From assembly GCF_053078305.1 (NCBI RefSeq), contig NZ_CP166879.1: a DNA stretch of 64,000 nucleotides; one strand, given 5' to 3'. The position numbers were made by a program, and so were the translations under genes. Every line of letters begins with the position of its first letter. Within the stretch, counting starts at the first letter, position 1. Below the pieces are notes generated by a model that was given only the letters and a program-made list of their open reading frames with translations, did not search any database and was not told the DNA's origin. Positions 37,423 through 41,084 of this stretch are shown here, in pieces.

Positions 37423-37805
37423 AATTCGGTTACTCCTTTACGAACGTTTTCGATATCGCTTTGCGTACCCATGAGTTCAAAGCGGTACAGCCACGGCACG
37501 CCGCATTTCCGGGCAATCACATCTCCAGCGCGGCCATACGCCTCACCAAAGTTGCGATTACCCGAAGCAATAACGCCGCGAAGCAACGCCCGGTTGTGCT
37601 CGTCGTTTAAAAAGCGAATTACCTGTCGTGGCACCGCGCCAGCCGTACCGCCGCCGCCGTAAGAGGGCACGATCAGGATGTAAGGCTCGTCTACCTGAAT
37701 CCGTTCCCGCTCATTGAGCGGGATGCGCACCGCGGGCAGACCTAAACGTTCGATAAAACGCTGCGTGTTTTCGGAGCTGCTGGAGAAGTAGACGAGCTGG
37801 CTCAT
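37395..37805 (-). CDS. nrdI: Flavodoxin-like RNR maturation protein NrdI
   Basis: 136-aa [20 protein letters not shown]..; overlaps nrdE start. Confidence 0.93.
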
Positions 37806-38047
37806 GCACTGGCCGCGTGTGGCGCTGGATGCAGACGGTTAATCATGTCCGGACGGAAACCAGACCAGCTAAGATCGCCAGCAATCACTACCGGCAACTG
37901 ACGAAAGCCCTGAGCACGCAACACTTCTGCCGCTTCAGGAACGCGATCGACATTAATCATTTCAAAATCAAAGCCCCGGTTTTCCATCGCCCGTTTGGTG
38001 GCGTGGCACTGAACGCAATCGTTACGAGTGTAAATAGTAATGCGCAT
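37802..38047 (-). CDS. nrdH: Glutaredoxin-like protein NrdH
   Basis: 81-aa ORF with CVQC redox motif. Confidence 0.93.
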
Positions 38048-38255
38048 GATTCGTATTTCCGTTTAAAATGAAGATACGGCGCGATGATACGCGTCGGGTT
38101 GTCTCTCTGTTGATACAGAGATACTAGATGTAGTTTAAAAAAGATTCAACCATACAAGATATGGGAATTTTAGATTGATTACGCCACCGATGAATGGCTC
38201 AACGGGGTAGGGGATTTTGTGTTTTTTTGCCGGGTGATTACCCGGCATCAAGAAG

Positions 38256-38687
38256 TTACATGCGCATGGAAACGGCCAGACGGTTAAAACAATTCATCAG
38301 CCCGATGGCAAACGTTAAGTCGCTGATTTCTGCTGCGCTGAAATGCTCAAGCAAAGGTTGATAAACCTCGTCTTCCGCATGGGTTCGGGCAATATCGGTT
38401 ACCGATTCCGCCCATGCCAGCGCCGCCCGCTCGCGATCGTCAAAATGATGGCTTACGCGCCAGCCTGCCAGGGCGTCCAGTTTGTGCTGCGGCACACCGG
38501 ATTTGCGTAATGCTTTGCTGTGCATCTCCAGACAAAATGCGCAGCCGTTGATTTGCGAGACGCGCAAATAAATTAACTCCATCAGCGTGGTATCCAGCGC
38601 GCTATTTTCCAGTGCCGTTTTGGCCTGCACCAGTGCGTTATACACTGCCGGGCTAAGTTCGTAGTAAGGCTGACGTAATGTAGTCAT
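38256..38687 (-). CDS. Carboxymuconolactone decarboxylase / AhpD-like family protein
   Basis: 143-aa ORF; core motif NGCAFCLEMH typical of the AhpD/CMD fold; divergent from the MocR-like regulator. Confidence 0.6.
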   Translation of the reverse strand: MTTLRQPYYELSPAVYNALVQAKTALENSALDTTLMELIYLRVSQINGCAFCLEMHSKALRKSGVPQHKLDALAGWRVSHHFDDRERAALAWAESVTDIARTHAEDEVYQPLLEHFSAAEISDLTFAIGLMNCFNRLAVSMRM

Positions 38688-38774
38688 ACAGTTTCTCCTC
38701 TTATTAACGCCCGCAATGTAGCACTATAATGGACTGCTAAAGAGAGCCATAAATTACCTAAAAAAGCAGACCAT

Positions 38775-40109
38775 ATGCCACGTTATCAGGATATCGCCCG
38801 TCAGTTAAAAACGGCTATTGAGCAAGGGGAACTGAAACCTGGCGCAAGGCTACCTTCGAGTCGTACCTGGTCGCAGGAGTTGGGCGTCTCTCGATCCACT
38901 GTCGAAAATGCGTATGCTGAGCTGGTGGCGCAGGGATGGCTGGTCAGGCGGGGACAGGCGGGTACCTTTGTCAGTGAGCAGATACATCCGCAACAGTCTG
39001 CTGTGGATGTCGTGGCTTTTGCTGGTGAAAGTCAGCAGCCGCTGCCTTTTCAGATGGGGCTACCTGCACTTGATCTTTTTCCGCGTGAATTGTGGGCGCG
39101 GGTGATGGGCCGCCGTCTGCGTACCCAGACGCGTTTTGATTTGGCATTAGGCGATGTCTGCGGCGAGGCGGCCTTGCGCGAGGCTATTGTTGATTATTTA
39201 CGCGTTTCACGTGGGATTGATTGTCAGCCAGAGCAGGTCTTTATCACTCACGGTTATGCGGCCTCAATGGCTTTAATTCTGCACGCTCTGGCGCAACCGG
39301 GAGACGGGATGTGGATGGAAGATCCCGGCTTTCCGCTGATTCGCCCGATTGTCACTCGCCACGGTGTGGAAATTTTACCTGTGCCGGTTGATGACAACGG
39401 ACTGGATGTCACAAGCGGAATACAAAATTATCCTGATGCGCGTTTTGCCCTGATTACTCCGGCACACCAAAGCCCGCTGGGTGTGGCACTCTCTTTAGCG
39501 CGTAGGTATCAGATACTGGAATGGGCAGAGCGTAGTCAGGCATGGATTATTGAAGATGATTACGACAGTGAGTTTCGCTATCACGGTAAGCCGTTACCGG
39601 CACTAAAAAGTCTCGACGCGCCGCAGCGGGTGATTTATGCCGGAACATTCAGCAAAGCGCTATTTCCTGCATTGCGCTGTGCGTGGCTGGTGGTGCCGGT
39701 GGAGCAGATTTCGCAATTCCGGCAGCAGGCGTCACTGGAACCATGTGCTGTACCCGTACTGTGGCAGAACACACTGGCAGATTTCATCCGTGAGGGGCAT
39801 TTCTGGCGGCATCTGAAGAAAATGCGCCAGCATTATGCCCAGCGACGGCAGTGGATTGAGCAGGCACTTACGCAGCAGGGATTTCAGGTTGTGCCGCAAA
39901 AAGGCGGTATCCAGATGGTGATCAAACTAGCAGGTAATGACGTGACATTCGTGCATAAAGCCAATGCTGCTGGTCTTGCCGTACAGGCACTTAGCGACTG
40001 GCGTATCCGCTCAAGCGAGGACGGAGGATTATTGCTCTCGTTTACGAATATCGTTAGCGAAAGTATGGCGCGACAGGTAGCACAGCAATTGCGCAGTGCT
40101 TTAAATTAA
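38775..40109 (+). CDS. MocR/GabR-type transcriptional regulator (GntR wHTH fused to a PLP-dependent aminotransferase-like domain)
   Basis: 444-aa ORF; N-terminal GntR HTH (RLPSSRTWSQELGVSRSTVENAYAELVAQGWLVRRGQAGTFV) and C-terminal fold-type-I region with GTFSK PLP-lysine motif. Confidence 0.8.
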   Translation: MPRYQDIARQLKTAIEQGELKPGARLPSSRTWSQELGVSRSTVENAYAELVAQGWLVRRGQAGTFVSEQIHPQQSAVDVVAFAGESQQPLPFQMGLPALDLFPRELWARVMGRRLRTQTRFDLALGDVCGEAALREAIVDYLRVSRGIDCQPEQVFITHGYAASMALILHALAQPGDGMWMEDPGFPLIRPIVTRHGVEILPVPVDDNGLDVTSGIQNYPDARFALITPAHQSPLGVALSLARRYQILEWAERSQAWIIEDDYDSEFRYHGKPLPALKSLDAPQRVIYAGTFSKALFPALRCAWLVVPVEQISQFRQQASLEPCAVPVLWQNTLADFIREGHFWRHLKKMRQHYAQRRQWIEQALTQQGFQVVPQKGGIQMVIKLAGNDVTFVHKANAAGLAVQALSDWRIRSSEDGGLLLSFTNIVSESMARQVAQQLRSALN

Positions 40110-40258
40110 TAACCCCGAAGCCAGGCTTCGGGGTCCTATAAGACTGGTGACCAGGGCAAAATCCCCTGATGCGCTATGTTTTTCAGGCCTGTAGGCGGAC
40201 AAGGCGTTGACGCACTGAGTACTTTTCAGAAGTCAGACTACTGCTTGTCATCGTCTCA

Positions 40259-40588
40259 CTACGATTTACGCATGCTCAACAACGCACCGATAAAAATACC
40301 CACCGCTGCCGCTGTACCCACACTACACCAGGGTCTTTCACGAACAAAAGAATCCGCGCAGCCTACGGCATCGCGCGCGGCTTGCTGGACGCGAGTACGA
40401 CCATGCATTCGCGCCCTGGTTTCTTTCAGCAATGCCTGAGCTTTACTGCGTGCGGCTTCAGCTTCCCCTTTGGCGTCGCTGCCCCAGGACTTCAATACAG
40501 ATTCGAGGCTGTCAGCTAATTGATTGACATCATTCTGGATATCCTGCACGCCATCATCAACGTCGTTGCGGTTCGGTCGGTTAAACAT
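40259..40588 (-). CDS. ygaM: DUF883/ElaB-family ribosome-associated membrane-anchored protein YgaM
   Basis: ORF 40259..40600; from MFNRPNRNDVDDGVQDIQNDV.. with C-terminal TMS; start placed at the second Met. Confidence 0.85.
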   Translation of the reverse strand: MFNRPNRNDVDDGVQDIQNDVNQLADSLESVLKSWGSDAKGEAEAARSKAQALLKETRARMHGRTRVQQAARDAVGCADSFVRERPWCSVGTAAAVGIFIGALLSMRKS

Positions 40589-40739
40589 ATGATCCCCCAT
40601 TAGAATTCGATGTAATTTTCAGTGTAGACCATAATTTTCTTAACTGAGGTTCATCGCGGCTTTATGGACTTTTCTGAAAGCGTTGTGAATGCGCAATCAG
40701 GTAAGGTAGGCCCGCGGTTGATAATAACGAGGATCAAAT

Positions 40740-41084
40740 ATGTATTTACGACCAGACGAGGTGGCGCGCGTACTTGAAAAAGTCGGTTTTACTGTCGATG
40801 TGGTAACCCAGAAAGCGTATGGTTACCGCCGTGGGGAAAATTATGTCTATGTTAATCGCGAAGCGCGAATGGGACGTACCGCACTGGTAATTCATCCAAC
40901 ATTAAAAGAACGTAGTTCGACACTGGCTGAACCCGCTTCCGATATTAAAACTTGCGATCATTATCAACAATTTCCGCTCTATTTAGCAGGCGAGCGACAC
41001 GAGCATTACGGTATCCCGCATGGCTTTAGTTCGCGTGTTGCGCTTGAACGTTATTTGAATGGTTTATTTGGCGAAGCCAGTTAA
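40740..41084 (+). CDS. ygaC: DUF2002-family protein YgaC
   Basis: 114-aa ORF; divergent from ygaM. Confidence 0.85.

Follow-up and report, generated by a model that had tools for sequence, protein, structure and literature searches.

A divergent MocR-type regulator and AhpD/CMD-like gene pair between nrdH and ygaM, ancestral to the Enterobacteriaceae and deleted in K-12 and most Escherichia coli

Between nrdH and ygaM, the 64,000-nucleotide stretch of Escherichia coli DNA analyzed here (the window) harbors a two-gene divergon, in which a gene for a MocR-type regulator (mocR) and a gene for a small AhpD/CMD-like protein (hereafter the CMD gene) diverge from a common control region. The divergon is vertically inherited and ancestral to the Enterobacteriaceae at this position, and it has been deleted in K-12 and in approximately 74% of E. 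coli. It adds a third MocR regulator to the species repertoire of E. coli, next to YdcR and YjiR, the only two that K-12 possesses, and laboratory-strain work has overlooked the module because K-12 does not carry it. The practical value of the finding is modest, and the pair is real but ordinary. The analysis now defines a concrete 46-bp candidate operator, corrects a "PdxR" name that has likely been over-propagated in RefSeq, and points to three natural E. coli genotypes for a regulator–target pair that is present in dozens of Proteobacteria.

The divergon is already catalogued as the Spro_3719 regulog. It is therefore not new: a published classification lists its orthologs, STM2803 and CKO_04020 among them, as a MocR regulog with a COG2128 target (Suvorova & Rodionov, 2016; PMC5320631). 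The members of this regulog, designated 'Spro_3719 - Enterobacteriales' in RegPrecise, are STM2803, CKO_04020, KPN_03002, Ent638_0497, ECA2654, and Spro_3719 (PMC5320631), locus tags that we linked to the present loci by genus, position, and target type. The regulator–target pair and the bacterial family are the same as in the window, a single AhpD/CMD (COG2128) target is predicted, and the protein of the window shares 74–79% identity with its Salmonella and Citrobacter counterparts, which occupy the same slot and are each paired with a CMD gene. The E. coli copy went unlisted because K-12, which lacks the pair, was the only E. coli in the published set. More broadly, COG2128 appears in 53 MocR regulons (Suvorova & Rodionov, 2016; PMC5320631). 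Literature searches combining MocR with carboxymuconolactone decarboxylase or with AhpD found no papers, and a broader search with GntR and nrdH returned nothing relevant.

Locus layout

An earlier note on this DNA, made from the sequence alone, had described two divergent genes of 444 and 143 aa, separated by 87 bp and located between nrdH and ygaM; the open reading frame (ORF) list agrees exactly (Table 1). The family calls made in that note also hold, the smaller protein matching CMD (PF02627) and AhpD core (TIGR00778) models and the larger matching MocR-type models over its full length, as do its description of the base composition as native and its view that the pair is missing from K-12. 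The GC content of the pair is 0.50–0.55, matching that of its flanks, and RefSeq annotation of O157:H7 contains the identical two genes. In K-12-type genomes, for example HST04, nrdH and ygaM are adjacent, separated by a 247-bp spacer, and the pair is missing. The ORF list and direct reading of the sequence revealed no mobility genes or edge repeats around the pair, and an Rfam scan of positions 37700–40800 gave no match at E ≤ 1.

Table 1. Features of the divergon and its flanks, in window coordinates
Feature	Position	Strand	Evidence or remarks
nrdH	37802..38047	minus	ORF list; flanks the CMD side of the pair
Stable hairpin just past the CMD stop	38229..38246	minus	-15 kcal/mol; z-score -3.6
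CMD/AhpD-like gene, 143 aa	38256..38687	minus	ORF list
Divergent control region common to CMD and mocR, 87 bp	38688..38774		Direct sequence reading
CMD Shine-Dalgarno, GAGGAGA	38694..38700	minus	Direct reading; conservation 0.89
Back-to-back overlapping -10-like hexamers	38723..38730		Conservation 0.95, including adjacent TAGCAC
TATAGT, putative CMD -10	38728-38723	minus	
TATAAT, putative mocR -10	38725-38730	plus	
Box 1, ATGGACTGC	38729..38737	plus	Left arm of long-spaced inverted repeat; mean conservation 0.90
Box 2, AGAGAGCCAT	38741..38750	plus	Internal half-site in box 3 orientation; mean conservation 0.96
Conserved A-tract before box 3	38760-38765		Mean conservation 0.97
Box 3, GCAGACCAT	38766..38774	plus	Right arm of inverted repeat, abuts mocR ATG; mean conservation 0.97
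MocR-type regulator gene, 444 aa	38775..40109	plus	ORF list
Hairpin at mocR stop, ygaM intrinsic terminator	40111..40135	minus	Terminator-like site; -19.8 kcal/mol; z-score -3.7
Allele-specific 123-bp spacer, terminator hairpin to ygaM stop	40136..40258		Outside the functional unit
ygaM	40259..40588/40600	minus	ORF list; flanks the MocR side of the pair

The intergenic control region

The spacer between the two genes is 87–91 bp long in Escherichia, Citrobacter, and Salmonella, and across 46 distinct spacer sequences conserved blocks alternate with variable stretches. A search of this region for direct and inverted repeats of the MocR type, as the earlier note had proposed, yields three conserved boxes, of which the outer two are inverted. 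Comparison of the 46 sequences defines a putative 46-bp operator-like site, ATGGACTGC-N3-AGAGAGCCAT-N15-GCAGACCAT, that overlaps the TATAAT box and touches the mocR start codon. Boxes 1 and 3 form the inverted repeat, while box 2 stands in direct orientation relative to box 3; boxes 2 and 3 have only CCAT and a few flanking bases in common, and box 1 reads ATGGTCTGC in many species. Conservation is 0.55–0.69 in the stretches beside box 2, compared with 0.96 for the box itself. This signal emerged only through cross-species comparison; a generic repeat finder, applied to the spacer, gave nothing beyond short, chance-like repeats (for instance, CGTAATGTAG/CGCAATGTAG). The pattern ATGGWCTG-N24-32-CAGWCCAT occurs once in the 64 kb of the window, compared with no occurrence in 100 shuffles.

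Box 1 overlaps both the TATAAT hexamer and the site at which mocR transcription likely begins. The spacer contains no consensus -35 element, and a sigma-70 promoter consensus scan called no promoter within it, so the two back-to-back hexamers can be regarded as putative -10 elements only. Judging from the geometry of these hexamers, box 2 would occupy the position expected for the -35 element of the CMD promoter. Upstream of distant MocR genes, a long-spaced inverted repeat was recovered in 15 of 32 loci, compared with 6 of 32 shuffled controls, which lends the operator geometry some, albeit weak, support. A perfect 9/9 inverted repeat with 28 bp between its arms lies upstream of the Kerstersia mocR; at seven Achromobacter-type loci, from six Achromobacter genomes and one Proteobacteria MAG, the arms of the inverted repeat are 30 bp apart.

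A proposed regulatory mechanism

The reading that we favor as a whole, and consider probable, is that of an ancestral divergon in which MocR represses its own gene and activates a CMD redox gene in response to a PLP-reactive effector. By analogy with GabR and Bacillus clausii PdxR, a MocR homodimer would hold PLP on Lys294. In one ligand state, its two winged helix-turn-helix (wHTH) domains would contact boxes 1 and 3, the arms of the inverted repeat, with 28 bp between them; in the other state, they would contact the direct pair formed by boxes 2 and 3. Binding would repress mocR itself, because the boxes cover its -10 hexamer, leader, and start codon. Effector-bound MocR would activate the CMD gene, as is suggested by the position of boxes 2 and 3 at about -30 and -54 of a CMD promoter without a -35 element. 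The effector would react with or displace PLP in the sensor domain, and the CMD product would act as a CxxC thiol oxidoreductase of the type of Pseudomonas aeruginosa PA0269, most likely removing an oxidant or electrophile. We infer DNA binding, homodimer formation, PLP use, and the direction of regulation from characterized MocR proteins.

It is also possible, though rather unlikely, that MocR acts as a plain repressor of both genes, with the effector releasing the protein and no activation step. The overlap of the boxes with both -10-like hexamers and with the mocR start codon would fit such an arrangement, and EnuR-type MocR proteins are described as repressors (PMC8739950). Further, 111 genomes keep the CMD gene while having lost the DNA-binding half of mocR, an outcome expected if loss of the regulator turns CMD on. 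However, these genomes may represent one recent clone, so their intact CMD gene carries little weight. In divergons, MocR regulators as a rule switch on the divergent target and repress their own gene (PMC5320631), and the CMD promoter has no recognizable -35 element, with box 2 at that position; both points favor activation of CMD coupled to autorepression over repression of both genes.

A more speculative extension of activation by effector-bound MocR is that the MocR/AhpD-like pair serves as a dedicated sensor–effector for a PLP-reactive toxic small molecule, with a PLP adduct as the signal, on the lines proposed for MpaR and cyanide. This we advance very tentatively, as an unlikely reading. 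Candidates for such a molecule include an oxidant, an electrophile, a cyanide-like nucleophile, and an aminooxy or hydrazine compound. If this reading were true, the pair would constitute a widespread, as yet uncharacterized stress response, and its retention in phylogroup E (O157) and in many B2 extra-intestinal pathogens, set against its loss in K-12, ST131, and most commensals, would affect bacterial fitness within the host.

Identity of the regulator

Its sequence identifies the 444-aa protein as a MocR-subfamily regulator, with a predicted GntR wHTH joined to a fold-type I aminotransferase-like domain that is putatively PLP-dependent. The protein is covered from end to end by NCBIfam MocR-type models. 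Residues 2–80 match GntR N-terminal domains (HutC, LldR, and others), residues 2–74 match wHTH structures of YvoA, and residues ~85–440 match aminotransferase models and structures; PF00392 (GntR) and PF00155 are recorded in MocR homologs, those with PF00392 being 75–92% identical. K294, within an FSK motif, together with D261, Y263, and S293, is invariant across 79 homologs, and the dN/dS of 0.07–0.10 reflects purifying selection. Its best matches among solved structures are B. clausii PdxR (7pq9, E 5e-65) and GabR (4n0b, E 7e-59). With 33% identity to the PdxR structures for the regulator, and 40% identity to PA0269 for the CMD protein, the folds of both proteins can be considered fixed.

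Several RefSeq records name copies of mocR pdxR, and a genuine PdxR, controlling the biosynthesis or salvage of vitamin B6 (PLP), would be consistent with the score of the protein against the PdxR equivalog model NF052282 (417.6 bits, above the cut-off of 320), with B. clausii PdxR as its best solved relative, and with an operator layout that resembles the PdxR operator. However, gene context gives this name no support. No pdxS, pdxT, pdxK, or other B6 gene is adjacent—the neighbors are CMD, nrdH, and ygaM—and the conserved partner is a CMD gene, at 41 enterobacterial and 27 distant loci. GabR is nearly as good a match in the PDB as PdxR, and the gene is missing from ~74% of E. coli, K-12 included. 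PLP synthesis in E. coli, moreover, uses the PdxA/PdxJ route. The orthologs have also been placed in the unnamed Spro_3719 group, apart from the PdxR, PdxW, and PdxQ groups (Suvorova & Rodionov, 2016), and another gene, STM2436, is the PdxR2 of enterobacteria. A genuine PdxR is therefore, in our estimation, quite improbable. PLP itself could be the sole ligand of the MocR protein.

Distribution and ancestry

The pair was recovered from 1387 of 5426 complete E. coli genomes, in each case as a single chromosomal copy and never on a plasmid. Three genotypes can be distinguished: an intact pair (1276 genomes), a regulator-truncated form in which the DNA-binding half of mocR is deleted and CMD is intact (111), and a full deletion (about 4000). 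A model of repression alone accounts for the truncated genomes no less well than one of activation. Carriers include O157:H7, O55:H7, O145, APEC O1, and ABU 83972; in K-12 HST04 and ST131 strain JJ2434, the pair is missing at the same junction. Because most E. coli have lost the pair, its function is dispensable in many niches. The losses encompass K-12, ST131, and most commensals, and the pair is kept in phylogroup E (O157) and in many B2 extra-intestinal pathogens.

Beyond E. coli, 41 of 48 Enterobacteriaceae species loci share the gene order nrdI-nrdH-CMD-MocR-ygaM/ygaC-alaE, and the same slot is occupied in E. albertii, E. whittamii, Citrobacter, Salmonella, Klebsiella, Enterobacter, Buttiauxella, Cedecea, and others. 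Since the slot is the same at these 41 loci, the pair is ancestral and the K-12 state is a deletion. Exact or near-identical proteins occur in E. fergusonii, E. albertii, and E. marmotae, and protein identity to the window is 91–94% in other Escherichia, 74–79% in Citrobacter and Salmonella, and 60–71% in Klebsiella, Enterobacter, and Buttiauxella. Farther afield, a CMD homolog adjoins a MocR homolog in 27 of 32 distant proteobacterial loci, in varied orientations, showing that the linkage outlasts rearrangement. Among the neighbors of these distant relatives are AzoR-like flavoproteins, at 19 loci, and GNAT acetyltransferases, at 9, a context in keeping with a role in redox or electrophile detoxification. 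The earlier note had suggested that the pair may be an ancestral module lost in K-12, a view that the identical enterobacterial position sustains, and had called its arrangement typical of a regulator with a single target gene, with which the conserved spacer repeats and the distant MocR–CMD linkage agree; the CMD gene is probably the regulated target of the MocR protein.

The patchy distribution within E. coli could instead suggest that the pair is a horizontally acquired islet of some lineages (O157, B2) and that the K-12 state is ancestral, and the two E. coli alleles are indeed unusually divergent, with a mocR dS of 0.34–0.47 compared with 0.07–0.14 for flanking genes. This scenario is very improbable and was dropped: it is contradicted by a slot and gene order shared across many genera, by protein identity that declines along the host phylogeny, and by a K-12 junction that retains a fragment of the post-CMD hairpin. 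The native GC content, the edges without mobility genes or repeats, and the absence of the pair from plasmids also argue against it.

The K-12 junction can be described in terms of the two hairpins that flank the pair. The post-CMD hairpin is located between CMD and the nrdHIEF promoter region; since it is followed by an A-run on the CMD strand, it does not qualify as a canonical terminator. The ygaM terminator hairpin, which is common to the convergent mocR and is kept in K-12, JJ2434, and APEC, forms the right edge of the K-12 deletion; at the empty site, the distal half (right arm) of the post-CMD hairpin is fused directly to it. The 123-bp stretch that follows is present at at least 99% identity in exactly 364 genomes, those with the window/O157-type allele, and is missing from the B2/APEC allele and from E. 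albertii. A REP element was considered for this stretch and rejected in favor of an allele-specific spacer, of which most genomes have one weak partial copy at another site.

The CMD protein

The 143-aa protein matches the Pfam CMD family PF02627 over residues 13–94 (E 2.7e-21), scores 57.5 bits against the NCBIfam AhpD core domain TIGR00778 (cut-off 27.8), and is 40% identical over its full length to PA0269 (PDB 2o4d/2ijc); on these sequence matches, it is assigned to the CxxC members of the PA0269 subfamily (COG2128). The proton relay of PA0269 consists of Glu36, Cys48, Tyr50, Cys51, and His55 (PMC3141380). The window protein has E37, C49, C52, and H56, of which the two cysteines and the histidine are invariant across 74 homologs and the Glu is kept in 51 of 74; the position of Tyr50 is occupied by Phe in the window protein and in 56 of the 74. 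A dN/dS of 0.05–0.10 reflects purifying selection on the gene. In vitro, PA0269 carries out weak thiol-dependent H2O2 reduction, and thiol alkylation blocks the activity (PMC3141380). The weakness of this peroxidase activity, and the Phe in place of the relay Tyr, count against a redox role for the window protein.

The PF02627 match of the protein and a weak match to TIGR00777 (AhpD; 30.8 bits) might suggest a true gamma-carboxymuconolactone decarboxylase, or a true AhpD that works with AhpC. Both identities are extremely improbable and were dropped: the TIGR00777 score lies far under the cut-off of 191.95, the six NCBIfam hits include no PcaC model, neither ahpC nor pca genes lie near the pair (in the window ORF list and in the RefSeq neighborhood), and the nearest characterized relative, PA0269, is a stand-alone AhpD-like protein. 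The gene z3974 in Wang et al. (2011) may correspond to the window CMD gene, and is a lead only.

Comparison with known systems

The P. aeruginosa PA0268-PA0269 pair resembles that of the window in that a MocR regulator adjoins a stand-alone CxxC protein of ~145 aa. Structures of PA0269 include 2o4d, 2ijc, and 7xw1, and its relay Glu, Cys, Cys, and His are kept in the window protein, unlike Tyr50. PA0268, however, belongs to another MocR orthologous group in the 2016 classification, and its regulon often includes a cupin gene (COG1917).

B. clausii PdxR has the same protein architecture as the window regulator and is likewise part of a divergon. Its experimentally defined operator packs two direct motifs, an inverted one, and an A/T tract into 48 bp (PMC10450172), and this pdxR-pdxST operator has the same layout as the window site, with spans of about 46–48 bp. 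The half-site sequences are unlike the window boxes, however, the protein is 478 aa long compared with 444 aa, and it controls PLP synthase, not an AhpD-like gene. Bacillus subtilis GabR, a MocR protein with a PLP lysine, both activates a divergent gene and represses itself (PMC5320631); it differs in sensing GABA, in controlling gabTD, and in an operator consisting of a direct-repeat pair only. P. aeruginosa MpaR is a MocR protein tied to redox or toxin defense, rather than amino-compound catabolism, that needs its PLP lysine and has been proposed to sense a PLP–cyanide adduct (PMC10790758). Unlike the window regulator, MpaR targets ccoN4 and neighboring genes, and its motif is palindromic.

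Identity of the gene pair

The two divergent genes between nrdH and ygaM form a real pair, and they are a member of a MocR-COG2128 divergon that has already been catalogued. The ORF list bears out the coordinates and description given for both genes in the earlier note, with an 87-bp spacer between them, and the native base composition noted there agrees with a GC content of 0.50-0.55, the same as in the flanks. Purifying selection acts on both genes, with dN/dS at 0.05-0.10 when they are set against their counterparts in O157, a B2 strain, E. whittamii, E. albertii, Citrobacter and Salmonella.

Features of the nrdH-ygaM interval in the window
Feature	Position	Strand	Basis or remark
nrdH, left neighbour of pair	37802..38047	minus	
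CMD gene, 143-aa ORF	38256..38687	minus	ORF list
CMD Shine-Dalgarno	38694-38700		conserved (alignment)
TAGCAC + TATAAT	38719-38730		conserved (alignment)
box 1, ATGGACTGC	38729-38737		conserved (alignment)
box 2, AGAGAGCCAT	38741-38750		conserved (alignment)
A-tract	38760-38765		conserved (alignment)
box 3, GCAGACCAT	38766-38774		conserved (alignment)
mocR, 444-aa ORF	38775..40109	plus	ORF list
ygaM, right neighbour of pair	40259..40588	minus	then ygaC, alaE

The reconstruction of MocR regulons across 259 genomes by Suvorova & Rodionov (2016) lists, in its Table S1b, a regulog 'Spro_3719 - Enterobacteriales' (CKO_04020, Ent638_0497, ECA2654, a Klebsiella gene, STM2803 and Spro_3719), every member of which has a COG2128 target (AhpD/CMD, PF02627); the group bears a locus-tag name only, without a functional name in the table, and is kept separate from the groups named PdxR, PdxW and PdxQ (PMC5320631). 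COG2128 recurs in 53 MocR regulons, one group among them being that of PA0268, which targets the COG2128 gene PA0269, and the E. coli copy is not in the list because K-12 was the sole E. coli studied (PMC5320631). The interpretation of the pair in the earlier note was correct, and the divergon itself is already on record (PMC5320631). Our literature search turned up no experimental work on the pair; in Salmonella, STM2804 figures solely as a neutral insertion site, its function being described as unknown (PMC3723669).

MocR-type NCBIfam models match the full length of the larger protein, whose close homologues bear Pfam PF00392 (GntR) and PF00155 (aminotransferase class I/II), and whose best solved relatives are PdxR of B. 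clausii (7pq9, E 5e-65) and GabR of B. subtilis (4n0b, E 7e-59). Lys294, at the PLP-holding position in an FSK motif, is invariant among 79 homologues, as are D261, Y263 and S293. The regulator scores 417.6 bits on the NF052282 (PdxR) profile, above the cut-off of 320, and for this reason the NCBI pipeline calls some of the E. coli copies pdxR; RefSeq carries the same E. coli regulator (genome matches H4, H6, H7, H47 and others) both as 'pdxR: MocR-like pyridoxine biosynthesis transcription factor PdxR' and as 'PLP-dependent aminotransferase family protein'. We do not file it as PdxR, because the linkage to B6 genes that defines PdxR was not found. PLP by itself could still be its ligand.

The smaller protein matches Pfam CMD (PF02627, E 2.7e-21) and the AhpD core domain (NCBIfam TIGR00778), and a full-length alignment with PA0269 of P. 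aeruginosa gives 40% identity. PA0269 is AhpD-like, has a proton relay made up of Glu-Cys-Tyr-Cys-His, and reduces H2O2 weakly in a thiol-dependent manner (PMC3141380). The window protein has E37, C49, C52 and H56, with Phe at the Tyr position of the relay; both Cys and the His are invariant among 74 homologues. Its score falls far under the true-AhpD cut-off, and no PcaC model in the NCBIfam search matches it.

Ancestry and loss

The pair is ancestral, as the earlier note had suggested, and K-12 has a deletion of ~1.86 kb. A scan with one genome per species yielded 80 loci, 48 of them enterobacterial and 32 distant. The order nrdI-nrdH-CMD-MocR-ygaM/ygaC-alaE is shared by 41 of the 48, among them Escherichia sp. 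E1V33, E. whittamii, E. albertii, many Citrobacter, Salmonella enterica subsp. diarizonae, Klebsiella, Enterobacter, Yokenella, Buttiauxella, Cedecea, Pseudescherichia and others; the remaining seven are mostly broken by contig ends. Identity to the MocR protein of the window declines with host distance, from 91-99% in Escherichia to 74-79% in Citrobacter and Salmonella and 60-71% in other genera, and the protein is also present in E. fergusonii and E. marmotae. In filled sites the ygaM terminator hairpin lies at the mocR stop codon; at the K-12 empty site that terminator directly adjoins what is left of the hairpin found after the CMD stop codon, namely its right arm. Horizontal acquisition is rejected, given a slot common to so many enterobacterial loci and an identity that tracks host distance.

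Deletion in part of the E. coli species accounts for the patchy distribution of the pair. The flanks were found in 5421 of 5426 complete genomes and the pair in 1387, always as one chromosomal copy and not once on a plasmid. Among the carriers are O157:H7, O55:H7, O145, APEC O1:K1:H7, O2:K1:H4 and ABU 83972. Sequence comparison confirmed that nrdH and ygaM are neighbours in K-12-type HST04, where, as in ST131 strain JJ2434, they lie 247-250 bp apart at an identical junction without the pair.

Partial losses also occur. Franconibacter helveticus and Enterobacter pulveris, two of the seven enterobacterial loci outside the common order, keep the MocR gene beside nrdH and have lost the CMD gene. 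In 111 E. coli genomes (including AF22, positions 1736-2491 of locus L085) a ~581-bp deletion running from the mocR start codon takes out the DNA-binding domain together with the linker and the beginning of the sensor domain, leaving the CMD gene and the putative operator intact, so that these strains amount to a natural regulator knock-out. Several species of the Citrobacter freundii complex (L010, L012, L014-L021) have lost ygaM and kept the pair.

Putative operator and regulation

The search of 38688-38774 for direct and inverted repeats, suggested in the earlier note, recovered a three-box arrangement. In an alignment of 46 distinct spacer sequences, the tabulated elements have conservation of 0.89-0.97, against 0.55-0.69 in intervening stretches. 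Boxes 1 and 3 form an inverted repeat with arms 28 bp apart, perfect where box 1 reads ATGGTCTGC, as in many species, and box 2 has the orientation of box 3; the composite pattern has one match in the 64-kb window and none in 100 shuffles. This layout, two direct motifs and one inverted motif with an A/T tract over ~46-48 bp of a divergent spacer, resembles the experimentally defined operator of B. clausii PdxR, in which the motifs touched by the two winged-helix domains change with ligand state (PMC10450172).

The boxes overlap the mocR -10-like hexamer, leader and start codon, and box 2 occupies the -35 position of a putative CMD promoter reading from TATAGT on the minus strand; a consensus promoter scan of the spacer called none. 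From these placements, and by analogy with GabR and PdxR (PMC5320631), we infer that MocR would repress its own gene and activate CMD in an effector-dependent manner. A stable hairpin lies 3' of the CMD stop codon (38229-38246); because it is followed on the CMD strand by an A-run and not a U-run, CMD transcription may continue into the nrdHIEF promoter region (38048-38200).

At 40624-40632, in the ygaM-ygaC intergenic region, there is an isolated near-match to box 3, GTAGACCAT; it is probably due to chance, as the window has 21 one-mismatch matches where 14 would be expected.

Possible function

The neighbours that recur at distant loci are indicative of redox or electrophile handling, not of vitamin B6 synthesis. 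The 32 distant loci (including Achromobacter, Rhizobium, Pseudomonas and Burkholderia) encode MocR homologues of 44-49% identity, adjoined in 27 by a CMD homologue in divergent, tandem or convergent orientation. Other repeat neighbours are an AzoR/AcpD-like flavoprotein (19 loci), a GNAT acetyltransferase (nine), a LOG-family/TIGR00730 protein (eight) and the chromate transporter ChrA (six). Going by EDL933 numbering, the CMD protein may be the one designated 'z3974'. A salicylidene acylhydrazide affinity resin captured 'z3974' of E. coli O157 together with Tpx and WrbA (PMC3191033). It seems rather improbable, although MpaR offers an analogue (PMC10790758), that the pair would be a sensor for a reactive toxin, signalled via a PLP adduct.

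Alleles of the module

No complete genome identical to the window over this region was found; the closest are Escherichia sp. E1V33 (MocR 99%) and E. coli A16, from an otter, with nucleotide identity of 99.2-99.6% for A16 versus 98.5-98.8% for O157:H7. The module has two E. coli alleles that differ to an unusual degree: between the O157-type allele of the window (38775-40588) and the B2 allele of APEC O1:K1:H7, dS is 0.34-0.47 for mocR and 0.25 for ygaM, but only 0.07-0.14 for nrdI, nrdH, CMD and ygaC. The mocR divergence between these alleles equals that of the window from E. whittamii, and this suggests that the allelic lineages are ancient or that there was import from another Escherichia species. 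The ygaM terminator hairpin is separated from the stop codon of ygaM by a 123-bp spacer (40136-40258), which occurs at >=99% identity in exactly 364 genomes, those with the O157-type allele, and is missing from the B2 allele, K-12 and E. albertii; a 52-bp part of it has one weak additional copy elsewhere in most genomes.
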